A model generated the notes under the pieces. That model saw only the letters and a list, made by a program, of their open reading frames with translations. It had not been told where the DNA came from and made no database searches. A program made the position numbers and the translations under genes. Shown piece after piece: positions 359-64,000 of a DNA stretch of 64,000 bases. Source of the DNA: a virus; the IMG/VR virus record IMGVR_UViG_3300005527_000060; one strand, given 5' to 3'. Position 1 is the first letter of the stretch; every line of letters begins with the position of its first letter.

Positions 359-3300
359 TTAACGGACGGGACATGCCCCTTGACAAGAAGCACCTAAATC
401 AACATCATCAATATCAACATTAGCTCTTAAAGCTGCTTGTTCTAATTTAGCTAATAGATCTTCATTGACATAGAACTTGCCATCTTTAACCCACTCAGAC
501 TGCTTGAAAGAAGACATCATCTTGTTATAGACTTCTTCTGTTATTTCTTCATTAGGAAGAAGAGGATGATTACCACTGTAATAAGATAAGAAGGCCGCAT
601 TAATAAATCTAAACCAATTCTTTTCTTGATGTAACTCTTCTGCTAAGTTATCCCATTCATCTTCTTTAGCTGTAATAGTAGAAGACACCATATGATCAAC
701 ATAACAATCAGTAAATCTAAGTACATTTTGCAACTGTCTACTAGCACTTACACTACCTTGAGATTCAACCATACCAGAGTTAACAGGAAACTCAAATAAA
801 ACTGCATTAGAATTGTTAAAGGCTTCTTGTTTATCCTTATCAGTTAGAGATCTAAAGTGTTCAATTCTACTCCAAACATCTTTAAACTTTGGCTCATATT
901 TTGATTTAGTAATATTAAACCTAACTAATAACCTTTGAAATAATCTAATAACATTATTATTACTAAACACTTCAACTTGATCATTATATAGTTTAAGTAA
1001 ATCATAAGGAGTTGGAATCCAGCTAAAGCCCTGATCTTTTAATGTCTTAGCAAGAGCATCATTAGCGCCCATTTGAATTCTATTAATATAATAAGGTGCC
1101 CAATCCCAATGAACTCCACTAGAAGAGCCTAATACTTTAGAGCCAGTATTATGCGATTTAATACCACCTTGATAATACCAATGAGGATCATCTACTTCTA
1201 TATCATAAGTGTTAATTAACTCTTCTAATACTTCAACACTATCAACCTTATAAGGATTTTTATGACTCTTATCACTTGAAATAATAAAGCCATTTAATTT
1301 AGCTTTAATACTATTACTGTTAATAAAATCAATAGCTCTATTAGTTGAATAAGTTCTACTTAACTGTAAGTCATAATAAATGCCAATACTTTTAGTTGTT
1401 TCTCTTGTATAATCATAACAACTAAATGATAGCCCTACTGCTTCTCCAACTTCTTGTAACATTCTTGCAAAGTTTTCATTCTTTGTAGTAATACTACATC
1501 CTTTGTTTTTAAAGCAGCCATCATTATCTAAATAACCACAAATAAAAGATAGTAAAGCTTCTCTACTAGATCTTCTAATAATAAGAGGAATAGTAAAGTT
1601 TTTTGTCTTTAATAAACCATTAAGCTTTAAATATTCAACTAAATCTGTAGAATTAATATTTACCCTATACATATCTTTTATTTTATCTTTTGTAGCAACA
1701 GTAGAAATATTAAATAAACTATTGCTTAAATCAACAAACTTTTGTACTACTTCTATATATCCTGAATAGAAACTAATTGCATGATTAGTTACACTACCAT
1801 TAGCAAATACACTAGCAACCCACCAAGATAAATCATTAGTTATTTCTTTAGGAAATAATAAATCTTCTTTTCTTAAATGATTATATTTAGCACTGTAATT
1901 TGCTAGTAATTCATTAGTTACTTTATTATAAGTATCTAATTCAATATCTAATACATCGCCTTTCTTTAAATTAACAGCATTTTTCCATAAACCATTTACA
2001 CTAAAAGGATGTTGGAGTGTAAATACTAATTCTCTTCCATTGTTTAGTTTAATTTTTACAACTTTAGATAAGCCGTTATTATATACACTTCTAATAGAAA
2101 ATCCTTTAGTTGTTGTATTGTTTGTATCAACTTTATTAAAACCTAATTTAGATACATCTCCGATCTCATCAACTCTTAATAAACCTTCAGTTGTTGTTCT
2201 TATATGTGAAATTTTTCCGCACCCCTCTGGTTTAATACAACACACCATTAAGGGTCTTTCAATACCTAACTTATTAGCATATGTAGTTGCTTCATCATTA
2301 GCCCAGTCATTTAACTTAGTCATTAAGTCTTCTTGTTCTGTATAAGACAAATCTAGTTTATTAAATAATTGAATCCAACCAGTGACTGACACTCCCAACA
2401 ATCTTTCAGCTTTCTGAGTATCATCTAGTTCAGCTCTAGGCATAGTAACAAAGGTTTGTCTTGTAGCTATTCTAACTGTAAGTTTAATAGCTTGTTCTAA
2501 AGCTTTCTCATCTAGCTTATAACCAGTAACTGCACATAAATCATTATTATTACATTTTTTAATAACAAATTTATTAATTGGAAGAGTTGTTAAATTGCAA
2601 AATCCAGTTCCTTTACCATCTTTATAACCTACAGACAAAATTATTTCGTGGCATGGGTTCGTACAAATATCACAAAAATATTCCCAGATTTTCTTAACAT
2701 CAAAATCAGGTCTGTGCTTTCTAACAGCTAACCACTTCTTACCAACCATCTTCAAATAGTTAGCAAAGCCTGGATCACCAGCATTAGCAATTACTTTAAA
2801 TCTTTCTTTTAACCATTCAACAGAAGGTTTGTACTTATCAATAAACTTGAATAAATCTTCTTTAGAAACATCTGGATTGGCTTCTAGAAACTCTCTTAAT
2901 TCAGATAAATAAGGGGTGCCTAATGCTTCAGTATTATTACTTTGAATTCTATAATACTTACCCTTTAAAGTAGGATCATCAAATAGGTTTACCTTAGCAT
3001 TGGCCATTAGGTCATCACCTTCTTCAAAGAGACAAAGTAATGCAGATCTTCTAGTATTACCAGCTACAACACCCTTAGCAATAGCACAACAAATATCTAA
3101 ACAATCAATACTTCTAAGCTTACTATCCGGACATTCATTAAAGATATCAAAGACATCTTTAAGCAAATTCTTTAATGCTTCATGACCACTAGCCGTGCCA
3201 CCAAAACCATTAATTCTCTCACCTAATGGTCTAACAGAATCAAAATTAAATGAGATAGACGTATCTTTATTTATACAAAAAGCTATTTCTAAGAGAGCGT

Positions 3301-3880
3301 GTAAAGCATGTATCCATCCTTCTCTACTATCCCCAACCTGTACAATAGTTGCATTCTTAGAATAACTTACAATGGTACTTTCAATTCTCTCATGTTTAGG
3401 CTTTGGGTTATAAGAATCAAACAATATATCAAACTTCTTAATATTTGACAGCTCATTAATATCAGAGCCAAACACTCTAAATCCAACACCAGTACCAAGC
3501 ATTAACAGTTCAAATACAGTTGTAAAAGCTTCTATTCTATTAATAGCTAAAGCTGAACAATTGAAGGATGAAGCAGGATGTTTTTTATTAGCTTCAGTGC
3601 CTGCAATCCACATACTTCTACCAGAAGGCAGAGCTAGTAATTTATTCATATGATCCATCATAGTAGATCTTTCTAACTCATACTCTTGATCACTAATAAT
3701 ATCTTTAACAAGGTCTAAATTAGCATCTACTACTCTTGCATTTCTTTCTACAAATGTCTCTCTTCTTTTTTTATTTGGCAGCCATCTTCTATATGTTCTA
3801 ATATCAACAATAGAACCTACAGGACCAAAGTCAGGTTTAATATCTTGTTCTTCTTTATTTAACTCAAATTCAACTAACAT
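359..3880 (-). CDS. nrdJ: ribonucleotide reductase large subunit, class II-like (adenosylcobalamin-type), interrupted in-frame by an intein
   Basis: 1173-aa ORF. RNR active-site motif CDICTNPCHEI, C-terminal redox Cys pair CQGAC, conserved IKPEG|T(GSKVL) region split by a ~358-aa insertion. No nrdB-like gene nearby, consistent with class II. Confidence 0.8.
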   Translation of the reverse strand: MLVEFELNKEEQDIKPDFGPVGSIVDIRTYRRWLPNKKRRETFVERNARVVDANLDLVKDIISDQEYELERSTMMDHMNKLLALPSGRSMWIAGTEANKKHPASSFNCSALAINRIEAFTTVFELLMLGTGVGFRVFGSDINELSNIKKFDILFDSYNPKPKHERIESTIVSYSKNATIVQVGDSREGWIHALHALLEIAFCINKDTSISFNFDSVRPLGERINGFGGTASGHEALKNLLKDVFDIFNECPDSKLRSIDCLDICCAIAKGVVAGNTRRSALLCLFEEGDDLMANAKVNLFDDPTLKGKYYRIQSNNTEALGTPYLSELREFLEANPDVSKEDLFKFIDKYKPSVEWLKERFKVIANAGDPGFANYLKMVGKKWLAVRKHRPDFDVKKIWEYFCDICTNPCHEIILSVGYKDGKGTGFCNLTTLPINKFVIKKCNNNDLCAVTGYKLDEKALEQAIKLTVRIATRQTFVTMPRAELDDTQKAERLLGVSVTGWIQLFNKLDLSYTEQEDLMTKLNDWANDEATTYANKLGIERPLMVCCIKPEGCGKISHIRTTTEGLLRVDEIGDVSKLGFNKVDTNNTTTKGFSIRSVYNNGLSKVVKIKLNNGRELVFTLQHPFSVNGLWKNAVNLKKGDVLDIELDTYNKVTNELLANYSAKYNHLRKEDLLFPKEITNDLSWWVASVFANGSVTNHAISFYSGYIEVVQKFVDLSNSLFNISTVATKDKIKDMYRVNINSTDLVEYLKLNGLLKTKNFTIPLIIRRSSREALLSFICGYLDNDGCFKNKGCSITTKNENFARMLQEVGEAVGLSFSCYDYTRETTKSIGIYYDLQLSRTYSTNRAIDFINSNSIKAKLNGFIISSDKSHKNPYKVDSVEVLEELINTYDIEVDDPHWYYQGGIKSHNTGSKVLGSSSGVHWDWAPYYINRIQMGANDALAKTLKDQGFSWIPTPYDLLKLYNDQVEVFSNNNVIRLFQRLLVRFNITKSKYEPKFKDVWSRIEHFRSLTDKDKQEAFNNSNAVLFEFPVNSGMVESQGSVSASRQLQNVLRFTDCYVDHMVSSTITAKEDEWDNLAEELHQEKNWFRFINAAFLSYYSGNHPLLPNEEITEEVYNKMMSSFKQSEWVKDGKFYVNEDLLAKLEQAALRANVDIDDVDLGASCQGACPVR
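1148..2221 (-). mobile_element. intein with LAGLIDADG homing-endonuclease domain inside the RNR
   Basis: Insertion begins with Cys right after extein IKPEG (aa ~554) and ends ...GGIKSHN followed by Thr (+1) of extein TGSKVLG (aa ~911). Internal LAGLIDADG motifs LSWWVASVFANGSV and LLSFICGYLDNDGCF. Excising it restores the conserved RNR KPEGT motif. Confidence 0.65.
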
Positions 3881-20616: not shown

Positions 20617-20619
20617 AAT

Positions 20620-20956
20620 TTATTTCAAGTATTTTTCATTAAATACAGACTTAAAGTATAACTTATCTTTCTTCTAAATAGTCAAAAGGATTACAACCAC
20701 AAATATTAGTCTCTCTATTATTAGCATTTAATAAGTTTTCAATAGTAAGTTGACTTACATCTAACTCTATTAAATGGTCCTATTCTAAGACTTTTATAAC
20801 CTCACTATGTTTACCAGCAACTTCTCCTAAATATAAAGTAGAACCAATAATATTTTTAACTTCTACCTATGTTGAGACAAATAAACCTTCTAAGATACCA
20901 TAAAGATGGTTTAAGTTAAACTTATATAGTTTCTTAATACTTATATCTTCTGTCAT
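20620..20956 (-). other. candidate gene or pseudogene: 111-codon frame open except for two in-frame TAG codons
   Basis: ATG at 20956-20954 overlaps the polA exon-2 stop (TAATATG). Frame MTEDISIKKLYKFNLNHLYGILEGLFVST(TAG)VEVKNIIGSTLYLGEVAGKHSEVIKVLE(TAG)DHLIELDVSQLTIENLLNANNRETNICGCNPFDYLEER ends at TAA 4 nt before the next gene. No TAA/TGA in 111 codons of ~75% AT DNA. Confidence 0.3.
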
Positions 20957-20957
20957 A

Positions 20958-21119
20958 TTATTTCTTCCAACAAGGAGCAATTGTTAAACTACTAAAACCA
21001 CCAGTCTCACAATCAAAGTATTGCTTTAACATATCACCTTGTATTGTTTCCATCATATCTCTTAGTTTATTTCCCACTTCTTCTGCTGAGTCTTTATGCA
21101 ACTCATATACAATTTCATC
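20958..21119 (-). CDS. polA: DNA polymerase I-family polymerase, exon 2 (C-terminal 53 aa)
   Basis: Starts immediately after an intron-terminal G (..cataaatG|GATGAA). Encodes DEIVYELHKDSAEEVGNKLRDMMETIQGDMLKQYFDCETGGFSSLTIAPCWKK, which aligns with the Pol I segment after motif C (VH|DELVFEVHKDDVDAVAKQIHQLME...). Confidence 0.75.
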   Translation of the reverse strand, partial: DEIVYELHKDSAEEVGNKLRDMMETIQGDMLKQYFDCETGGFSSLTIAPCWKK

Positions 21120-22152
21120 CATTTATGTTACATGCTAAACGTTTCCTTTAACACTCTTATACTTTCATATAAGATCAGACTATATCATAGTATATTTCTA
21201 TACTCCCTGCTTTTCAGATACACTGTACCTTACTCTACTCAGTTATACATAATAATTATGTACCTTTTTGATAGTCGTTGAAGGAGATACAAGATCTTTA
21301 TATCCCCCTGCTGATTGCCCAATCTTCTTAGTTTTTATAACTATCAAGTATATTATTCCTAATTGCTTTGTAGTTAAGAAGCTCTAAGGGGTTTCCAGCA
21401 AAGCCACTTTAAAATAATCTTCTGCTTCTTGTTTGGTATGAAAATATTTACGCTTCATTTTGTTTCCATTCCAGGTTCTTACTTCCCATCTATTTCTTTC
21501 AGTTTTAAAAGAAAAGCCACCCTTTTTATCCCCATTTAACTTTCTAGAGTTTTTACCTCTTAGAGAAGTAATTCTACTTTCTTCTTCTAAAGAATTTAAT
21601 TCTTCTAAAGAAAATATTGTATCTGGGTTGTTTAAAACAGCACTGCTCTCAAATAATTCTAAAGCTTTTAAGTCATAATACTTTATTGCTGATTCAATAT
21701 TTGAGAAGGTTCTATGATAAGTAATTCCTGAATTAGCTATTAATACTGCATATGAAGTAGTACCATCTTTAAGAATCTTTTCTCTAATTCCATAATAACC
21801 ACTTAAAGGTTTAGCCCTTAATCTGTTATGTATGTTTACAGAATATGTAACTACTTTCAAATTAGAAAGACAGTTATTTAATTTATTTCTATCAAGATGA
21901 TCAACAACATATCCTTTTAAAGGACACATCAAAAATTGATGTAAATACATACTTCGTCTATTAAAGTAGCATCCTACATAATCTTCTGAAGGTGCAATAA
22001 ATAATTTGACATTTAATAAGTCAAGTAAATCTACTGTTGACTTGTCTAATAAAACTTCTTTTCCACGCAAATAAATTGTTTCCATTACATTAAACTAAAA
22101 CTATATTTTAATTATAGCATAACAGGGTTTAAAGTGCACAATGATAAGGGCT
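21120..22152 (-). mobile_element. group I self-splicing intron in polA, carrying an HNH-AP2 homing endonuclease ORF
   Basis: 5' exon ends ..GTG CAU (U before 5'SS), intron ends in G. On minus strand in order: P-like AATTGCTGGAAACCCC (21400-21387), Q-like GGCAATCAGCAGG (21320-21308), R-like TTCAACGACTATC (~21275-21262), S-like GATATAGTCTGAT (~21185-21175). Confidence 0.7.
21384..22085 (-). CDS. HNH homing endonuclease with two AP2 DNA-binding domains (intron-encoded)
   Basis: HNH_3-type motif GYVVDHLDRNKLNNCLSNLKVVTYSVNIHNR. AP2-like YYGIREK...YHRTFSNIESAIKYYDLKALELF and WEVRTWNGNKMKRKYFHTKQEAEDYF. TAG stop lies inside the intron P element. Confidence 0.75.
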   Translation of the reverse strand: METIYLRGKEVLLDKSTVDLLDLLNVKLFIAPSEDYVGCYFNRRSMYLHQFLMCPLKGYVVDHLDRNKLNNCLSNLKVVTYSVNIHNRLRAKPLSGYYGIREKILKDGTTSYAVLIANSGITYHRTFSNIESAIKYYDLKALELFESSAVLNNPDTIFSLEELNSLEEESRITSLRGKNSRKLNGDKKGGFSFKTERNRWEVRTWNGNKMKRKYFHTKQEAEDYFKVALLETP

Positions 22153-24255
22153 ATGCACTAAAGCTACAATACAATTTCTAACTTTGTATCTATTATTTAC
22201 TTCTTCTAAATACTTTCTAACATATGGCAGGGTTACTTTTAGTTGATCAGCACAAAATCCTTGAACATATCCATTTGGACCCTTTCTTTGAGCTGAAGCA
22301 TCATTTCCCTTTGAATTAGATTCATCTACCCATAACCATCTGCCAGTTGGTAGCCTTATTCTTTTACATCTAATTGCTTCTTTAGCACTATTATCAAGCC
22401 ACTCTTTAAGCTTAAAGAATTGACTAAAATAACTATGTAATACTTTAGCTGCATCTTCAACAGAACATTTTAAGTCTTCAGATAAACCTTGTTCAGTCTT
22501 ACCATAAATAACACTAAAGTTTAAAATCTTCCCTTGAAATCTGAAGTCTGTAGAAGAAGGTATACTACTTAATATATTAATAATATTAGTAGCTTCTTCA
22601 ATACTACATCCTAAATAGGTTTGTAGATCATTTATAGATTTATTATATACATCTAAATATAATAGATCTTTATTATTATAAGTATATTTAAAATTCTTAT
22701 GATTACCCTCAGCCATTTCTCTAATAAGTTCTGCTGGATAATTCTTTAAAGCTGGACATAAGCCCATAGCAGCTACAGTATGAGGATCAGTATAAGGATC
22801 TTCTACAGGTTTACCTTTCTTATTAAGTATTTGATTTCCATTATTATCTAATAGATATAACTGTTTTTTCTTTTGATAAAAGGGTGCTAAACCCGCTTCA
22901 TCTTTAGCATAAGCCATTGCAGTTAATACTTCTTGTGAACTAAAGTCAATGCCAGCAATAACATAATCTTGTCTAGCTATAAAACCGCTTCTAATGTCAT
23001 AATTGCCTCTAGCAATTACCTGTTGTAAATTCATCTTAAACTTTTTATCACCAACAATAATACTAGAAGAAGATGACATTCTACCAGTTCCAGCCCCCAC
23101 AGGATTAGTAGTAGCATGTAAAGCACCAGTTATTGGACTAACAATAGAGTTATATTTACTAATCTCTGTTATTAGTTTTTCCTGTCTTTTATATACAATA
23201 AAAGTATTTATAACCTCCTTTGCATCTTGCTTATTAGATATCATTTCTAAATCTACATCATCAGTGTCTTCCTCATCTTCATCATCATCTTGATTAGAAA
23301 GAAACTCTTTCATAATAGCAGCGTTCAAAGCAGTTAAATTAACTTTGAACTTACTATTAATAATAGTACCTAACTTCTTAGGATTATTAAAAATAGTTGT
23401 TACTATAGGAGATACTGTTAAAGATTGTTGTAAGATACCATCCTCATCTTCAACTAAAGACACTGATAATGGCTGATCTAATTGTCTTGCTAACTTAATC
23501 TTAGTATCATTAGATAGTTGTTCTAATTCTTTAATAAAGCTATTCATCTTAACTTTATCAATATTAAAACCAACATACTCAACAATAGCTAAGATTCTCA
23601 TTGCATCTTGATCTAGATTAAATGCATACTCTTGTTCATAATAACTTATAAGACTTTCTTTAACATTTATACATAATTCTAACCACTTAGTATTAACATC
23701 CATTGCTGAATATTCCAACTGAGCTTTACTAAGAATAGGGCTAGACCAATCAGATGTTTGTAATGTTTTATCCATTACAACTCCTGCAAAGTGTCTCATG
23801 ATAGAGCCTAAACTACTACCAATTGCCAACTTACTTTGTCTCCATCCAATAGATACATATAAAGTATTAAACATAACCATTGAACAGTATATATTGTTCA
23901 TTTCAATATTATAGTGATGTTTAATCTGTCTTATTTCAAAGGTTGCATTATGCGCCCATACAATAAATCTATTATTATTCTTTATTAGATTTAAGAAGGG
24001 CAGTATATCAACAGTATTTAATTCAACTACAACTGTTGGGCCATCATTACCAATCCAATTAATACTTATAAGTCTTAGCTTATTACAGTAGCAATCTAAA
24101 CCTGAGCTTACAAGTCTATATTCATCTTTAACATAGCCTTCAAAGTCAATACCAACATTTACCACTTCTTCTTTTGAAAGAGTTGTTAGAACATCTATTA
24201 TTTGTTCTAACAACTCTTGAGTAGTAATATAAGAATATATATTACTATTATGCAT
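22153..24255 (-). CDS. polA: DNA polymerase I-family polymerase, exon 1 (3'-5' exo + polymerase domains up to motif C ..ALVH)
   Basis: ORF 22129..24255 (708 aa) with exonuclease and family-A polymerase segments. Terminates 7 codons after ..IVALVH (motif C HDE missing its D-E); these codons (SPYHCAL*) are read-through into the intron. Confidence 0.8.
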
Positions 24256-33628: not shown

Positions 33629-34096
33629 TATAAAATATTAATCTGAGATAGTATTTAAGAAAATATTAAAAAAAATCTATATAGTGATATTATGACACCA
33701 GATTTAGGAAATAGAAGTTCAGCATTTAATATAGTATATCCAACTAACAATACTGGAGTCTTACAAATTGAAAATATTGGTACAGTAGACAACATAGACA
33801 AATAGGTAGTAATCCTCCTTAATATTATAACAATGATACAGTAATTAGAACTCCTAATCTTAATGATTTAGGACCGCTTTCTCTTGCAAATAATGTAATA
33901 GTTACATCTACAACTTTGTTAATAGGTGCAGCAGCAACAACAGCCCTACAAACAAATAGTAACATATTATTAAATGATATAGTTCAAGCTTTACCCACAG
34001 TTGGTACCAGCTTATTTAGCAGCTTATAATATACTTAAATCATTTTTAACAGAAGAACAGATTGAAGTAATAGATGAAGAAAATACCTGCTTTAAT

Positions 34097-49176: not shown

Positions 49177-49468
49177 TTAATCTTCTTCATCCTCTTCCCA
49201 GTCCCAATCATTCTGATCATCATATGTATTAGAACTAGATCTTACATTTTGATTTTCTTCAGAGATTTTAAATAAAACATCCTTTAATTCTCCCTCAGCA
49301 AACTTATACTCTGAAATAGGTATATACTTACAGACTCTTAGCTTACTATTATTATAATCTCTAGGAATAGCCACAATGTCTTGTGGATCAACTTCAACTA
49401 GAATAATTGCATCTCTTTCAGAAACAGCATTACCATAATGAGGTATATAGCCCCAACAACAAACATGT
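49177..49468 (-). CDS. exon 2 of an intron-split hypothetical gene (exon 1 = 50584..51159)
   Basis: Supplied ORF 49177..49374 extends in-frame upstream to 49468 (..HVCCWGYIPHYGNAVSERDAIILVEVDPQDIV|AIPRDYNN..) without any start codon. Begins right after the intron 3' motif GATAACAAAATTG. Confidence 0.5.
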
Positions 49469-50575
49469 CAATTTTGTTATCCTAAAGGTTTTTTATCCTC
49501 TAGTTCTATATCTTATTGCTTTGATATAGTTCAGCATATATCTTTATCCTTAATAATTAAGGATATCCCGCACTCTTGGGATTAGTAATATTACTAATAA
49601 GTTTTTTAAACTCTGGATTATATTCCTTTACAGGGTTCACCATACCTATGCGTTGCGATGTTATATAGCTTTTATTCTATATAATTATCTCAGTGTTGTC
49701 CTAATTAAATTAAATTTATCCTTCTTTCTTTGTAAATAAAAGTTAGCGTCTTTATAAATATAATTACCAAATTCAATAATATGACTTTGAGTTCTTATAT
49801 TTAAAGTAGCACAAGTCTTTCTATATAACATTGTTGATTTTATTGTTTTTGGTAAACATTCAGCAATGCTTTTTAGTATAGAATCTGACCCATTAACAAT
49901 TATAATATTAGCAAGTCCTGTTGCTTTTCTAAAAGAAATACAGCCATCTCCATCAAAATAACCTCTAATAACATGATGAATCAAATCATTATCTATTTTT
50001 GGAATTTCAATATCTGCATATGTTTTTCTAGGACCAACTCCATATTTTGCTAAAGCATTTACAATTCTAAAGGAATTAATTCTAAATATTATTTGAGGTT
50101 TTCTATTTAAAGCGCCTTTTGTATTATTAAGTATCTTTTTTAAACCTTTAGGATATATATAATCTCTATATAAATCAATAATATATTCATCAATGTTTGA
50201 TAAACAAATACCAATTCTATTTTTATCATATACACATCCATCTGCTAAAAAGAATCCAAATAAATAAGCTTTTATTTCATTATCAATGTTATCAAAAAAG
50301 TCATGAGCAACTTCTTTATTCTTAGGCCAACTAATAGGCAATTTCTCATTAAATTTCTTTAATAAAGACTGAATATTTTGATAACAAGTCTCATAATGAT
50401 TTGCTATTTCGTTTAAAGAAAAACCTTCTAAATTTAATTTAATTATTTCATTTAAAGTTTCTTGATTATATTTAAGCATATAAGTATCCATGTATTAATG
50501 GGTATATTATATGTAATATAAATATTACTTTAATGAGCAAAAGATTTTCACTGATATTGCGGGATTTATTACCTA
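49469..50575 (-). mobile_element. group I-like intron with LAGLIDADG homing endonuclease ORF
   Basis: 3' end GATAACAAAATTG| shared with two other introns. S-like AAGATATAGAAC. 7-bp long-range pairing AATCCCGCAAT (50565-50555) / GTGCGGGAT (~49580-49572) bracketing the HEG ORF. Hairpin ATCCTTAATTATTAAGGAT (~49555-49573). 5' splice site not located precisely. Confidence 0.5.
49685..50491 (-). CDS. LAGLIDADG homing endonuclease (double-motif), intron-encoded
   Basis: LFGFFLADGCVYD and IRGYFDGDGCISF motifs; 268 aa. Confidence 0.75.
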   Translation of the reverse strand: MDTYMLKYNQETLNEIIKLNLEGFSLNEIANHYETCYQNIQSLLKKFNEKLPISWPKNKEVAHDFFDNIDNEIKAYLFGFFLADGCVYDKNRIGICLSNIDEYIIDLYRDYIYPKGLKKILNNTKGALNRKPQIIFRINSFRIVNALAKYGVGPRKTYADIEIPKIDNDLIHHVIRGYFDGDGCISFRKATGLANIIIVNGSDSILKSIAECLPKTIKSTMLYRKTCATLNIRTQSHIIEFGNYIYKDANFYLQRKKDKFNLIRTTLR

Positions 50576-52834: not shown

Positions 52835-53443
52835 CTATATATTTATTGCTTTATACTTCATACATTCAATTTGATTAACATAAGGTCTTACTATTTCTAA
52901 GAATCTTCTACCTTCTTTAGTAGACATTCTTAGTCTGTATAGATTTTTATGCTTTGTTATCTTCCAAGTAATATCCCATTTATCTTGAAAATATTTAACT
53001 ATTGTTTCATTTTCTTCTTTTGATAAATAAGTACTAAGAATTAATTCCCAAGCATGTATCTTGCCATTTCTTTTTTTAGGATATAAAGAACCATCATCCA
53101 TCCACCAAATAGCTAATCCTATAGGAGTTAGTCTATTTAAAGCTTTAAGAGGTATAGTTTTTACTTTATTTTTATATAAATATCTATGTAAAACTCTAAA
53201 ATATTTATGTCCTTTTTCTAAGACAACGGCAGGATATCCATTATTAACTATTTGTCTAACATTTATATTAGATTGAAAGATATTTCTAATTAAATTAGCT
53301 TTCCACTCTAAATATTCTTTTTGTTTTAGACAGTGAGTAATACTTAATCTACCAGATAATGAAGCATGACTAGGTTTTGCAACACAACCATCTCCAAAAA
53401 TAATTCCCATCAATATTGAAATGTTTTCTTTTGTTTTTAACAT
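52835..53443 (-). CDS. LAGLIDADG homing endonuclease
   Basis: LMGIIFGDGCVAK and LAIWWMDDGSLY motifs; tandem TAG-TAA stops. Confidence 0.7.
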   Translation of the reverse strand: MLKTKENISILMGIIFGDGCVAKPSHASLSGRLSITHCLKQKEYLEWKANLIRNIFQSNINVRQIVNNGYPAVVLEKGHKYFRVLHRYLYKNKVKTIPLKALNRLTPIGLAIWWMDDGSLYPKKRNGKIHAWELILSTYLSKEENETIVKYFQDKWDITWKITKHKNLYRLRMSTKEGRRFLEIVRPYVNQIECMKYKAINI

Positions 53444-53570: not shown

Positions 53571-54233
53571 TTAAAGTGGACATGGTTTTTTGTTATACTG
53601 ATTATTTTTAGTATGTGCTGATTTCCAAGTAAGATTATTTATTACATCCCACTTTCTTTGCATATATAAAGCATCATTATTTGTCATTAGATTAACTATA
53701 TTTATCATACTAGCTTGACGACCTACTTTTAGTTCATATTGATTTCTTCTTGAAACCAAACTGTATCTAATATCATATTCATCATATATTCCAATTAAGT
53801 ATTTAAAGAAAGAAGCGCAGTTTCCATAAATTGTAATTTTTTTATTATTATTAGAATCTACATAAACATTGCCATCTCCGTCAAAAACACCTCTTAAGAA
53901 ATCTCCTGGATATAGTAAAATACCAGGATTACCTAAAAGATGTATATTTTTTATACTTTTGCTTGGCACTAAACCATGACTCATTAAATCAATAACATAT
54001 TGTTTACTATAACAATAGATATACCAACTCTTTTCATCTTTAGACTTTTTAGGGGCACAAAAGAAAGGGAAAACATCTATTATTTTATATAATAATTCAA
54101 CATCATTAATCTTTATTCTGCAAGCATATTGTTGTCCTATATTATTTATAATAGTTCCATCACTATATATAAGACCTAGTAAATAAGCTTTATTTGGAGT
54201 ATCAATACTTTTAAACTCATCAGTATATTTCAT
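53571..54233 (-). CDS. LAGLIDADG homing endonuclease (double motif)
   Basis: AYLLGLIYSDGTI and LRGVFDGDGNVYV motifs; stop 10 nt upstream of the intron P element. Confidence 0.7.
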   Translation of the reverse strand: MKYTDEFKSIDTPNKAYLLGLIYSDGTIINNIGQQYACRIKINDVELLYKIIDVFPFFCAPKKSKDEKSWYIYCYSKQYVIDLMSHGLVPSKSIKNIHLLGNPGILLYPGDFLRGVFDGDGNVYVDSNNNKKITIYGNCASFFKYLIGIYDEYDIRYSLVSRRNQYELKVGRQASMINIVNLMTNNDALYMQRKWDVINNLTWKSAHTKNNQYNKKPCPL

Positions 54234-54300: not shown

Positions 54301-54489
54301 TTATCCACCTAATAGATCATTACTATTAGACTTTGTTGAGTAACCAACCTTAGTATAATAATTAGTCATAAAGTCCCTACTTAGACCTTTAGCATAATCT
54401 CTAATAACAAGATGATTATCAAAATGATTAGGTAGAAATATATCTATAGGTTTTTTAATATCATGCTTTATATGTTCATCTAATGCGTT
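54301..54489 (-). CDS. short exon/ORF between two introns (..LYDNKLNALDEHIKHDIKKPIDIF..LLGG*)
   Basis: Frame opens right at the 3' end of intron B (GATAACAAATTG|AACGCA) with no ATG (track used TTG). Ends in TAA just before the first LAGLIDADG ORF. Confidence 0.3.
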   Translation of the reverse strand, partial: NALDEHIKHDIKKPIDIFLPNHFDNHLVIRDYAKGLSRDFMTNYYTKVGYSTKSNSNDLLGG

Positions 54490-54830
54490 CAATTTGTTAT
54501 CATAAAGGCTCTTTATCCTTTATTTCTTTATATTTCTATAAAGTTCGGACTATATCATCATCCTAATTAGTTAGGATGTCCTGCGCTCTTGTCTCCTTAT
54601 CACCATATATTATAAAAAATACTTAGGCTCGTTATGTTTTTATAACATAATAGATTATTTAATCTAAGAGATAGTCTCTGAACATTCAAATACATTTCTG
54701 TATAAGCTTTGCTGCTGATTGCCTCGACTTAAGTATTTATGAATACTTGTAAGGGGTTTCCAGCAATTCACAGGATTTTTCAATAAGAATTACTTCTTAA
54801 AGCTCCAACTGTCTTATATTATTTATTTAC
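54490..54830 (-). mobile_element. group I intron (no ORF) with the same P/Q/R/S core as the two introns above
   Basis: P AATTGCTGGAAACCCC (54765-54752), Q GGCAATCAGCAGC (54723-54712), R GTTCAGAGACTATCTC (54684-54673), S GATGATATAGTCCGAAC (~54560-54546), terminal GGATAAAGAGCCTTTATGATAACAAATTG (54518-54490). Confidence 0.6.
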
Positions 54831-54835
54831 TTAAA

Positions 54836-55006
54836 TATAATAATATTTTTAGAGAACGTTTCTTTAAAAGCCGCCAATAATGGATTAGTATAAATATTAT
54901 TTCTTAGAATGCCTAATATTAAAGCAGTTTGACTTTCATCTATAGAAAAGAAACTCTGTTTTAAATTAGACTTAAACTCTTCTTGTACAACTGGTATCAT
55001 TGTTTT
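54836..55006 (-). CDS. small hypothetical ORF (57 aa) abutting the intron 5' side
   Basis: MIPVVQEEFKSNLKQSFFSIDESQTALILGILRNNIYTNPLLAAFKETFSKNIIIFK*. Not in track (<60 aa). All three frames closed before the P element. Confidence 0.25.
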
Positions 55007-55164
55007 ATATTAAGAACAAAATTAACTATTAATAAACAAACTTAAGATTACACTATCTTTCTTTTAAGCTAGGTAACTCTATTTCATTAAATCCTAAAGC
55101 TTTAACTTTAGCTTTATATTTATTATTAATGACTAATATCTCATCATTTACCCATTCAATATCA

Positions 55165-57390: not shown

Positions 57391-58425
57391 CAATTTTGTT
57401 ATCTTATAGGCTCTTTATCCTATAATTCTATATGTCACCATATAGTTCAGACTATTTCTTCGTGTTTATATTAGATAAACCGTTCCCCTGCGCTCTTGGA
57501 TAATTTTATTGGCATAGATTGCTCCTTAGCCTCATATCTAGTCGTTAGACCTTTCTACATTCTTTCAAATATAGCTTGGTAAGGAATTGTCTTTATTCAA
57601 AGAGTTTCTCCTTTTCACAGAGTTTTAACACCCCAGAGTATTCTAACTGATCATATATAGTTTGTTTACCAATTCTTTGATAATGTATTTCAATTAAATG
57701 AATATTTTGTTCTTTTAGCAATTCTCTTTTAATCTGATCAATTTTTCTAACATCATTTAGTCTAGATTTATCCCAAAATTTAGTTTCTTTATAATGTTGT
57801 TGACCTTGAATTTCTATAGCTACTTTAGCATCAAAATAATATCTATCTAATTCTAAAAACATATTAGTTTCAGGATTCTTTAGTAAAAGACCTTTTTCAA
57901 GTAATTGTTTTCTTCCATTATCAATAAAGTTTTTATCTAATATGAATTTATCAAGTAATGATTTTACATATATTTCAAGACAAGACTTAGTATTCTTAAC
58001 ATATAAATTTAATGCTTTTAAATGTTGTACTAGAGTTATGTTATGAAATTTAGGTAAACATGATACTAACTGAGATTTATGTTCTATACTTATTATTGAT
58101 GGATCTAAGGGAAAATACCCATACTTATCAACTAACTTATATATTTCAGTATTTACATTATTAATATCTTTATAATAATTCTTAGGTGTAAACTTAATCT
58201 CATAATTTATATAAGTTAAAAATTCACTAAATGATAATCCAGTTCTTTGTATAGCACAAAGTAAATAATTATAGCCATTATTTTTTTAAGAATGTATTAC
58301 TTAGATATTGATCTTCATGTTTTTCTGAAACTAACATAAATTCATTCTTGATATTTTCAATTTTAGTTAAATAACCCTTTTTGTGTAAACGCATAAACTA
58401 TATAATAAACAATAATATTATTATA
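57391..58425 (-). mobile_element. group I-like intron containing a frameshifted homing-endonuclease-like ORF
   Basis: 3' terminal module GGATAAAGAGCCTATAAGATAACAAAATTG (57420-57391) nearly identical to the intron B terminus. S-like AAATAGTCTGAACTATA (~57455-57440). Lies between the 58426 ORF and the 57390 exon. Confidence 0.5.
57593..58394 (-). pseudogene. intron-encoded endonuclease-like ORF disrupted by a +1 frame change in an A7 run (or sequencing error)
   Basis: MRLHKKGYLTKIENIKNEFMLVSEKHEDQYLSNTFLKK stops at TAA inside A7 (plus T7 58281-58287). The +1 frame continues open for ~230 codons into track ORF 57593..57862 (..YYFDAKVAIEIQGQQHYKE.., Vsr/DUF559-like). Confidence 0.4.
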
Positions 58426-62054: not shown

Positions 62055-63111
62055 TTATTTTGAGTTTTGAGTTTTGATTTTTAAGTTTTCTAATATGAAT
62101 TCTGTTAGATATTTACCTTCCAGAAATCCATATACATCTGACGTTTGACATTCTGTTCTATCATCCTTTACAAGGGTATATGGATGAATAGAATATGTTC
62201 TTATTCTACTTCCAAATCCAGTGTCTAATACACCTTCTTTAGTACTTTGCAGCTCTGTAAATTCATCATTATCTTTTATTAGTTGTAGTCTAGAAGTTAA
62301 TAGTTTTAAGGCTCTTTGCTTATTCTCATGCTGAGATCTAGTCTCTTGACATTTAACTGCAATACCAGTTGGTATGTGAGTTATTCTAATAGCAGTTTCA
62401 ACCTTATTAACATTTTGTCCTCCTTTTCCACCACTTCTAAAAGTATCTATTATTAGATCTTTAGGGTTAATTGTTAATTGAGAATTAACAATTATAGGTT
62501 CAACTTCAACACCACAAAAAGAGGTATGTCTTTTATCCTTTCCACCATAAGGTGAGACTCTTTGCAGTCTGTGATTTCCTCTTTCATTCTTTAAATAACC
62601 ATAAGAATAATCTCCTTCAATAAGTACACAGGCTGATTTAATACCTGTTACATCTCCTTCTTGAATATCAATTAAACTATACTTATAGTTATTATCTTTT
62701 AACCAATTATAATACATTTGAAGTATTTGTTTGGCCCAATCACAAGCTTCAGTTCCACCAGCTCCTGCTATAACATATAACATACAATTATTAATATCAT
62801 ACTTAGCTGTGAATAGATTATTAATCTGCCAAGTATGTAAAAACAAATCTAATTTAGATGTAATATTTAACACATCTTGTTCTAGTTCTAGTTCTAGTTC
62901 TTCTGCAACTTCTAAATCTTCTATTAATTTAAAATTAGCTTTTATAGTATCAATTAAACTTGTTTTGTTACTTAGAATTTGAAGTAAGTCTAGATTAGAC
63001 CAATCATAATTTAATTCTAAATTAATATTAATTACATCTTCTTCTAATTGTCTAAAGACTTTGTAGAAGAGGTTGAATTTTATTATAATATGTAGAAGTA
63101 ATTGTTTTCAT
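62055..63111 (-). CDS. prfB: peptide chain release factor 2 homolog with programmed +1 frameshift (join 63111..63055, 63053..62055)
   Basis: Body: RF2-type tripeptide region RVSPYGGKDKRHTSF, GGQ motif RSGGKGGQNVN, CMLYVIAGAGGTEACDWA (cf. E. coli CYLDIQAGSGGTEAQDWA). Frame 0 from ATG 63111: MKTITSTYYNKIQPLLQSL then TAG. The +1 frame is open from 63053 for 333 codons into the track ORF. Confidence 0.8.
63051..63057 (-). promoter_or_regulatory. prfB +1 frameshift site CUU UAG A
   Basis: Same slippery CUU-U as the E. coli site CUU UGA C, but the zero-frame stop is UAG. Confidence 0.7.
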
Positions 63112-63125
63112 GATTTTATTGTTAT

Positions 63126-63389
63126 TTAAATAGTGTTTTTGCAATTAGTTACAAACTTAATTAAGTCCTCTGTAGGAATAGAAAAGTTTAAAGAATTCCA
63201 ATAAATAGTATCACCCAAGCTACTTAGTCCAACCTTGTCTAGATCAGAATGAGAAGCATGTTTCAAAGCAGGAACTATCTCAGGAGAGAATGTAATCTTA
63301 GTAGTATTACTAAGAACTAAAGTTAATAGAAAAGCAAATTTATCATATTCAATATTTACTACTCTTGGGCCAGCCAAAATATCTGTCAT
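63126..63389 (-). CDS. hypothetical small protein, tandem paralog A
   Basis: 87 aa; C-terminus ..LGDTIYWNSLNFSIPTEDLIKFVT similar to the next gene. Confidence 0.35.
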   Translation of the reverse strand: MTDILAGPRVVNIEYDKFAFLLTLVLSNTTKITFSPEIVPALKHASHSDLDKVGLSSLGDTIYWNSLNFSIPTEDLIKFVTNCKNTI

Positions 63390-63390
63390 A

Positions 63391-63729
63391 TTAATTATTA
63401 TTACTAGTTACACGTTTAATTAAATCTTCTGTATGAATATCAAAGTCTAAAGATTCCCAATGAATAGAATCTCCAGAATGACTAATCCACTGATCTTTTA
63501 AACTAATTTCATTAGCATCTTTAAGTTCTTTTACCAAATGAACTGGAAAACTAACTAAGGCACCATTAATTAAAGATAAATTAACAACAATGCTTTGCTC
63601 ATCTGTTTTAGTACAATAAACAGATTTTACTCTGGCAGTATTTAAAAGACTCTTTTTTGTAGCTTCTTTTGCATTAGTTATTTGAGTTTCCAATTCCTCA
63701 TCAGTAATGCTCCAATTTTTAGCAGTCAT
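63391..63729 (-). CDS. hypothetical small protein, tandem paralog B
   Basis: 112 aa; C-terminus ..SGDSIHWESLDFDIHTEDLIKRVT. Confidence 0.35.
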   Translation of the reverse strand: MTAKNWSITDEELETQITNAKEATKKSLLNTARVKSVYCTKTDEQSIVVNLSLINGALVSFPVHLVKELKDANEISLKDQWISHSGDSIHWESLDFDIHTEDLIKRVTSNNN

Positions 63730-63785: not shown

Positions 63786-63859
63786 ATCCTACATACCAGA
63801 TTTGAACTGGTGATACCCAACGTGAAAGGTTGGTGGCATAGACCGCTTGCCCAATGTAG
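63786..63859 (-). tRNA. tRNA-Glu (anticodon UUC)
   Basis: Minus-strand cloverleaf: acceptor CCTACAT/ATGTAGG, D arm GGCA-AGCGGTCTA-TGCC, anticodon arm CCAAC-CTTTCAC-GTTGG (anticodon TTC), T arm ACCAG-TTCAAAT-CTGGT. No encoded CCA. Confidence 0.65.
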
Positions 63860-63933
63860 GTTATTTATAGAGAACAAGATGATTTTGTTTTTTTTTAGCA
63901 TAAAAAAGTATTAATTGCTGAATCATCTTTATA

Positions 63934-64000
63934 TAGTCCTAGAAAGATTTGAACTTTCACTGAATAGATTCTAAGTCTACCGCCTCTTCCAATTGGGCTA
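63934..64000 (-). tRNA. tRNA, 5' end beyond the window; anticodon loop CTTAGAA (anticodon UAG)
   Basis: Minus strand: U8-A9, D arm GCCC-AATTGGAAG-AGGC, anticodon arm GTAGA-CTTAGAA-TCTAT, 5-nt variable loop, T arm GAAAG-TTCAAAT-CTTTC, acceptor 3' strand TAGGACT + A. Anticodon UAG would be Leu(CUN), but the short variable arm is atypical for bacterial tRNA-Leu. Confidence 0.45.

Follow-up and report, generated by a model that had tools for sequence, protein, structure and literature searches.

The 64,000-nucleotide stretch of viral DNA analysed here (IMG/VR record IMGVR_UViG_3300005527_000060, hereafter the window) encodes a bacterial-type release factor 2 (RF2) that carries the +1 frameshift cassette of prfB genes with UAG, not UGA, as the stop codon at the shift site. 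The same UAG site recurs in a rare group of RF2 genes from phages and cyanobacterial chromosomes, whose products have Gln at the position of E. coli Val202, as RF1 does. On balance we favour the view that the phage gene is a member of this single-origin Gln-type subfamily, in which the autoregulatory cassette would have been retuned to a factor that reads UAG.

The finding departs from what is known of prfB. A 2025 survey of 8,164 bacterial prfB frameshift motifs recorded TGA in 98.6%, TAA in the remainder and TAG in none, and used this distribution as an argument for universal autoregulation (PMC12421855); a 2016 review of recoding describes a UAG counterpart as unknown (PMC5009743). Our full-text literature searches turned up neither a TAG cassette nor a Gln-type RF2.

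Structure of the release factor gene

The original prediction held that a 272-residue open reading frame (ORF) near the end of the window is a truncated RF2, that its N-terminus is encoded upstream in frame 0, and that a +1 slip on CUU-U joins the two across a UAG codon. The DNA bears this out on every point. In frame 0 of the minus strand, ATG 63111-63109 starts a 19-codon frame, ORF0 (MKTITSTYYNKIQPLLQSL), which ends with CTT (63057-63055), TAG (63054-63052) and a following A (63051), the TAG being read directly from the sequence; eight codons further on, frame 0 runs into a TAA. The +1 frame is shut upstream by TGA 63110-63108 and TAA 63128-63126 and contains no ATG, GTG or TTG upstream of GTG 62873, the start that gene callers chose for the 272-residue product. 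The RF2 body extends upstream of this GTG to AGA 63053, from where the +1 frame continues without a stop through 332 codons and ends at TAA 62057-62055. The joined product has 351 residues.

The joined protein aligns with E. coli RF2 from residue 36 and contains the PCRF (PF03462, 8.8e-38) and RF-1 (PF00472, 1.8e-35) domains. Its best-scoring family is prfB (NCBIfam TIGR00020), at 331.3 bits versus 221.6 bits for prfA. The latter score lies far below the prfA cut-off of 423, and the tripeptide is SPY rather than the Pro-x-Thr (PxT) of RF1; both domains, the GGQ motif and the SPF-type tripeptide, of which SPY is a variant, identify the protein as an RF2. Two features that define RF2 are replaced, namely the UGA at the shift site and the Val discriminator (see below). 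The phage protein also scores under the curated prfB equivalog cut-off of 370 bits, as does a Gln-type protein from Chamaesiphon (335.4 bits), compared with 494 bits for a canonical cyanobacterial RF2; such scores fit functional divergence.

Conservation of the frameshift cassette

The exact 272-residue body was found on 21 contigs. The largest one retrieved, deposited at ENA as ERZ27247957 k141_467024, is 216,004 bp long and contains the window at about 125.7-189.7 kb; the database lists one contig of 228,503 bp. The gene is borne by a phage. Assemblies from ENA, JGI, Logan and NCBI supply 14 loci in which a 23-nt cassette spanning the shift site (GTCTTTAGACAATTAGAAGAAGA, 63059-63037) is unchanged. 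Two diverged relatives, L009 (88% protein identity, 137-kb contig) and L010 (81% protein identity), keep the 19-codon ORF0, the TAG and the whole 23-nt block, and a comparison of the shift-site codon in related phages, as the original prediction had proposed, accordingly finds TAG in both. The block is the longest invariant run across the window, L009 and L010, the next longest being 9 nt. Only 53% of the columns are invariant among these three lineages, and a run of 23 nt was reached in none of 20,000 permutations. L010 has an additional +1-frame stop within ORF0, which leaves the shift site as the sole way into the body.

The overall design is that of canonical prfB: a short ORF0 (about 20-25 codons in the canonical gene), CUU before an in-frame stop, a slip onto UUU, and a body in the +1 frame. 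Canonical cassettes also have a Shine-Dalgarno (SD) stimulator and a 3' C. The phage cassette has neither; in the three phage lineages CTT is preceded by CAAAGT, CACTGT or CAATGT, and in the window the stop is followed by A and an invariant 15-nt block. SD-like motifs lie upstream of just 10 of 63 window genes, and loss of the stimulator is in keeping with this general scarcity. The invariant 15 nt 3' of TAG may be a replacement 3' stimulator. We found no conserved RNA fold round the site, the consensus fold reaching only -3.3 kcal/mol and being broken in L009.

Gln-type RF2 genes and their shift sites

Gln occupies the V202 column, three residues before Ser-Pro-Tyr, in 13 of 13 subfamily sequences, and Val in 113 of 113 canonical RF2s. 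CTT TAG stands at the junction of ORF0 and body in all 11 Gln-type lineages read from DNA (the window, L009, L010, L017, L018, L019, L020, L021, L028, L029 and L030/L031). The L028 contig (198 kb) carries a ccm carboxysome operon, frr and pyrH, which mark it as a beta-cyanobacterial chromosome; L018 is the metagenome-assembled genome (MAG) of an uncultured bacterium and L019 that of a Chamaesiphon sp., both with CTT TAG; and the L017 contig also encodes ParA, NuiA and NucA. Since cyanobacterial chromosomal homologues carry the same feature, it is not phage-specific. L030/L031 (ENA ERZ28593075 and ERZ27272744) is a second phage-like contig, unrelated to that of the window and with a GC content of 47%; it encodes a D12 methylase, SSB and DUF5131 as well as many small ORFs. 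Its divergent Gln-type RF2 has the loop HRIQRNSPF and the site GGAGTGT CTT TAG C; here the TAG was forecast from the Phe-Ser signature of the miscalled protein before the DNA was read.

The bacterial Gln-type ORF0s are 20-36 codons long (counted from ATG) and end in RSYL, QAYL (L028) or RSHL (L029) before the stop, much like the RGYL of E. coli RF2. All bacterial Gln-type genes except L029 have, 3-4 nt ahead of CTT, a motif resembling GGAG or AGG. The L030/L031 gene (P0283) has a 21-codon ORF0 ending in LECL, with GGAG 3 nt 5' of CTT.

RF2 genes with other residues in the V202 column served as controls, and those with a shift site have CTT TGA: L022 (Val), L025 (Glu) and six IMG/VR phage RF2s (Val or Met). 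L025 (JGI 3300038379, a 180-kb contig), in which the gene lies close to dnaA and dnaN, is the closest outgroup or sister lineage. It combines Glu in the discriminator column (HRMERISPF) and an RF1-like switch loop with the site CTT TGA C, and may represent an evolutionary intermediate. None of 27 IMG/VR phage RF2 loci with a readable loop is Gln-type; apart from the six with CTT TGA, these genes are apparently unframeshifted, single ORFs having been verified for five. A representative library also contains RF2-like proteins with odd discriminator residues, namely P0388 (Gln), P0399 (Lys) and P0368 (Thr), all with SPY.

In a neighbour-joining tree (126 sequences, 300 columns, RF1 as outgroup), the phage and bacterial Gln-type proteins cluster in 167 of 200 bootstraps, and each subgroup does so in 200 of 200. 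When 5.8 billion protein clusters were searched with a clade profile, about 12 of them scored 439-618 bits, followed by the Glu-type sister (423) and by canonical cyanobacterial RF2s at no more than 404; the clade comprises the phage group, the second phage-like contig and beta-cyanobacterial chromosomal genes such as that of the Chamaesiphon MAG. A strict DNA pattern for the loop matched 2 of 185,579 species genomes and no IMG/VR contig, and all exact-pattern scans together yielded these two genomes and one metagenome contig; the pattern is over-strict, as it misses P0158, P0283 and P0388. No near-identical phage is present in INPHARED. The association of Gln with TAG is probably one ancestral event kept in 11 lineages. 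The Glu-type sister with its TGA brackets this change, without replicating it.

The stop codon discriminator

RF1 Gln185 (Gln181 in T. thermophilus) and Thr198 hydrogen-bond the third stop base, which may be A or G (PMC3974865, PMC5776981), and the rejection by RF2 of a 6-carbonyl at this position has been attributed in part to an unfavourable contact of Val with O6 of G (PMC5776981). RF1 Gln185, three residues ahead of the Pro of PxT, falls in the column of the clade Gln and of E. coli V202. The RF2 Val that makes the contact is presumably the one in this column, going by the RF2 ribosome structures of Korostelev 2008 and Weixlbaumer 2008. Gln at the V202 column is the most direct single route by which an RF2 could accept G in the third position, i.e. 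UAG.

Comparison of the 13 Gln-type with the 113 canonical sequences revealed further changes that match RF1: Q322R, S325T and N276E, in addition to V202Q. Other columns that separate the clade are V198N, S209G, W319F, V327S and V348F, and the Asp following SPF is lost. Gln-type RF2 therefore has in common with RF1 the QR(V/I) before the tripeptide, including the Gln that bonds A3 or G3, the Arg and Thr of the ...RIRTY... switch loop, and the Glu at E. coli N276. It differs in having Ser-Pro-Tyr/Phe instead of Pro-x-Thr, in the overall sequence, which is that of RF2, and in its frameshift, which prfA lacks.

The original prediction had proposed an altered stop codon specificity on the strength of SPY. 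Altered specificity is now the better supported of the two options it offered (the other is discussed below), but SPY is not the reason for it: the change that tracks TAG is Val to Gln. Among the 120 best homologues, the recognition loop reads H-R-x-V-R-x-S-P-F in 110, has Val with SPY in two and has Gln for Val in eight. SPY is reported in about one third of bacteria (Duarte et al., PMC3472500), and some members of the Gln-type clade carry SPF. We rejected SPY as the cause of the TAG switch, as it co-occurs with a textbook site, GGACTAT CTT TGA C, in L022 (Val) and is also found in the RF2 of the TAG-recoded Lak megaphage, a Val-type protein encoded by a single ORF with no frameshift. An omnipotence mutation of the E167K type was likewise ruled out, the phage residue being Asp.

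Alternative explanations

A sequencing or assembly indel, or a decaying pseudogene, would account for an interrupted frame and for nothing more. We give it virtually no chance: the junction is identical in the 14 loci, which span four assembly sources and no fewer than twelve samples, it is retained at 81-88% protein identity, and the body is intact with every catalytic motif present. Conservation of the cassette across diverged relatives whose flanks have changed excludes a sequencing error. It is also improbable that no frameshift occurs and that a truncated factor is made from GTG 62873 or another internal start, ORF0 being an unrelated small ORF. The gene callers of every source database do call the truncated form. 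However, the 60 codons from 63053 to 62873 are open in three lineages and match RF2 domain 1, the match of the joined Chamaesiphon protein to TIGR00020 begins at profile position 3, no other DNA at the gene start is as conserved as the 23-nt block over the junction, and the +1 frame offers no earlier start codon. This phage might instead read TAG as sense, as Lak and crAss-like phages do, and the codon would then either be decoded at the shift site or place the RF2 in a code-change module. RF2 genes are known in the TAG-recoded Lak and Agate phages (preprint 10.1101/2021.08.26.457843), and one 106-codon frame in the window (see below) requires two TAGs to be read through. Even so, we regard this as very improbable. 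Reading the TAG in frame 0 leads to TAA eight codons on, and the shift would still be needed; the RF2 of Lak is Val-type and unframeshifted. The 75 called genes of the window end in TAA (56), TAG (12, about 16%) or TGA (7). Read-through of TAG adds 0-20 codons in 11 of the 12 TAG-ending genes and 46 in the twelfth. Coding coverage is 86% under the standard code and 88% with either TAG or TGA recoded; since both codons end ordinary genes and coverage is nearly unchanged, we rejected recoding of either in the window. No suppressor tRNA, tRNA(CUA), was found in the relatives, in the window or in the 10 kb to either side of it. The part of the phage searched, about 84 kb out of the 216-kb contig, has tRNAs for Glu(UUC) and Trp(CCA) besides a 74-nt tRNA whose anticodon is UAG; this region thus lacks both the suppressor tRNA and the in-frame recoded stops that would characterise a code-change module. 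Finally, a host in which UGA is sense (code 4 or 25) would give no pause at UGA, and UAG might have been adopted in its place. The genome is very AT-rich (29% GC in the window), and carriage of RF2 has been suggested for phages that infect such hosts (10.1101/2021.08.26.457843). We hold this to be highly improbable, given that the TAG cassette occurs in standard-code beta-cyanobacterial chromosomes with carboxysome, frr and dnaA-type neighbourhoods, that window genes end in TGA and none needs TGA read-through, and that the anticodon of the phage tRNA-Trp is CCA.

The second option of the original prediction is more difficult to dismiss. The factor may read only UAA and UGA, with RF1 gating its expression, such that low RF1 in the host would yield more factor; the cassette would then serve cross-regulation or the timing of infection, not autoregulation. 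In standard-code hosts it is RF1 that reads UAG; the phage protein keeps the Ser-Pro of SPF-type factors, the GGQ and the alpha-5 GGTE tip, and it has Asp at the site of the laboratory omnipotent mutation E167K. This explanation, which we consider possible but doubtful, does not account for the pairing of the stop switch with Val-to-Gln and the other RF1-like residues, or for the retention of TGA by the Glu-type sister despite its RF1-like switch loop. It is hard to see why a shortage of RF1 should call for more of a UGA reader, and the presence of the same cassette in cyanobacterial chromosomes argues against a phage timing device. The proposal that the Gln-type factor reads UAG has its own difficulties. 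The Ser of the tripeptide is retained, and if positions 2 and 3 of the codon could each be A or G, the factor would be expected to act on UGG (Trp) as well; laboratory RF2 mutants that read UAG do terminate at UGG and are toxic (PMC7530605). The residues altered in laboratory variants, E167, E170 and E172, are all still acidic in the phage protein, and the phage cassette is without the SD stimulator and the canonical 3' C. Moreover, a single ancestral double change kept in 11 lineages testifies to retention under selection and does not provide independent replicates. One might speculate that the altered switch loop or tight dosage control compensates for the UGG risk.

Genomic context

The coordinates of the RF2 gene and of the neighbouring tRNAs are collected in Table 1. 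The region is devoted to replication and nucleotide metabolism, with genes for DNA polymerase A, a clamp loader, a UvsX-like recombinase, primase, helicases and a class II ribonucleotide reductase; it also encodes a tail-fibre-like protein. The best cultured matches of the polymerase belong to the Microcystis phage Ma-LMM01 group, at just 28% identity. The samples presumably include freshwater-type JGI metagenomes, judging from the accession series. According to precomputed Pfam hits, the reductase (1,173 residues; 359-3880, minus strand) carries an intein that contains a LAGLIDADG domain.

Table 1. Positions in the window of the RF2 gene, its sequence elements and the adjacent tRNA genes.
Feature	Coordinates	Strand	Remarks
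ORF0, ATG + 18 codons + TAG (MKTITSTYYNKIQPLLQSL and stop)	63052..63111	-	frame-0 N-terminus of release factor
Shift heptamer CUU UAG A	63051..63057	-	P-site Leu codon CUU re-pairs on UUU; next codon AGA
23-nt invariant cassette GTCTTTAGACAATTAGAAGAAGA	63037..63059	-	takes in 15 nt 3' of TAG
RF2 body, +1 frame, 332 codons + TAA	62055..63053	-	PCRF and RF-1 domains
Codon-recognition loop HRLQRVSPY	62547..62573	-	Gln183 = CAA 62564-62562, in place of E. coli V202; SPY 62555-62547
Switch-loop region GFGSRIRTY	62193..62219	-	RF1-like Arg and Thr (Q322R, S325T); W319F (E. coli numbering)
GGQ peptidyl-tRNA hydrolysis motif	62415..62423	-	from sequence
tRNA-Glu(UUC)	63787..63860	-	upstream neighbour of RF2 gene
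74-nt tRNA, anticodon UAG, 3' part	63934..64000	-	cut by window end; whole in L001 1867-1940; reads CUN Leu codons

Directly upstream of the RF2 gene lie tandem DUF2442 genes (63126-63389 and 63391-63729, minus strand); one or two DUF2442 genes occupy this position in all three phage lineages. The tRNA with anticodon UAG and tRNA-Glu(UUC) form a pair about 0.7 kb upstream of the RF2 gene, and the same pair is present in L010; L009 has a class II tRNA-Leu(UAA) in place of the former. ARAGORN calls the anticodon-UAG tRNA as Leu, and it has a short variable arm; bacterial tRNA-Leu normally has a long one. A link of this tRNA to the CUU shift codon is speculative. A phage tRNA-Trp(CCA) is located about 5 kb to the left of the window (L015, 18775-18848). 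An extra Trp-tRNA would counter mis-termination at UGG by a relaxed release factor, which is again speculation.

Two ORFs with in-frame TAG codons had been put forward as hints of a UAG-related function, but they carry little weight. The supposed gene at 33692-33844 could not be reproduced as a convincing gene. The other lies in 20617-21383 (minus strand), 767 nt without a standard-code ORF, in which a 106-codon frame (20663-20983) needs two TAGs to be read through; it adjoins an HNH endonuclease gene (21384-22085), with DNA polymerase A (22129-24255) just upstream. TAG ends 12 ordinary genes, no suppressor tRNA is present in the region searched, and the TAG-containing ORFs sit beside homing-endonuclease or intron insertions. 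The window is rich in such mobile elements (a group I intron, several LAGLIDADG and HNH genes, and the intein), and broken or exon-like frames are therefore to be expected. The group I intron (54526-54825, minus strand; Rfam RF00028, 75.7 bits, full-length model) is flanked by LAGLIDADG ORFs (52835-53443 and 53571-54233) and by exon-like ORFs (54301-54519 and 54827-55009). Two minus-strand frames lack a usable start: a 230-codon frame at 57593-58285, whose first ATG leaves 89 residues, and a 96-codon frame at 49177-49467, adjoining a LAGLIDADG gene (49685-50491). Both are without a Pfam match and may represent either the 3' exons of split genes or additional recoding sites.

Discussion

The switch to TAG is always paired with an RF1-like Gln at the residue that contacts the third stop base, suggesting that the Gln-type factor probably reads UAG. 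From the sequence comparisons, we envisage the following mechanism. Full-length factor can be made only by a +1 slip on CUU at CUU UAG N. The Gln at the V202 column would accept A or G as the third stop base, as in RF1, and UAG would become a stop codon for the factor, joining UAA and UGA or replacing UGA. With ample factor, the 19-residue leader would be released at UAG. With UAG termination in short supply, the ribosome would pause with tRNA-Leu on CUU, the tRNA would re-pair on UUU, and more factor would be produced. As the factor itself is most likely a UAG reader, this loop would amount to autoregulation. A single gene could thereby provide the phage with a release factor that covers UAG and keeps its own supply in check.

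The closest man-made parallel is provided by the laboratory omnipotent RF2 mutants (E167K, E170K, E172K, K177R, D329A/G). They too are built on an RF2 scaffold and read UAG, as we propose for the phage factor, and tight dosage control would be expected to matter for both. The residues concerned are different, and the natural clade alters the direct contact to the third base. A tentative and rather unlikely extension is that Gln-type RF2s are a natural solution to the problem of engineering an omnipotent RF2, with the cassette acting as a dosage sensor and the phage able to terminate at every stop codon. Among phages, the RF2s of Lak, Agate and other IMG/VR phages are similarly bacterial-type factors encoded by large genomes. 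They are Val-, Ile- or Met-type and are encoded by a single ORF or have CTT TGA, whereas the present phage combines Gln with TAG; the study of the recoded phages reported RF2 genes in Lak and Agate but no frameshift (10.1101/2021.08.26.457843). Lak and Agate are TAG-recoded, whereas the present phage gives no sign of TAG recoding in the 84 kb searched.

Gln-type genes systematically escape correct annotation, being called as truncated ORFs or, in the case of the Chamaesiphon gene (WP_309730385.1 at NCBI), as a 'PCRF domain-containing protein'. If they do read UAG, they may supply parts for genetic-code engineering. The UGA of the prfB shift site has been regarded as invariant, and this invariance is the main comparative argument for autoregulation by RF2. 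The Gln-type clade breaks this rule, and the residue by which the third stop base is discriminated has changed along with it. Should the factor read UAG, the exception would uphold the logic of autoregulation in a new way, and Val to Gln together with the switch-loop changes would constitute a natural specificity switch in a bacterial release factor. The clade thus bears on why bacteria retain two release factors, and on whether reading of UAG by an RF2 must entail termination at UGG.

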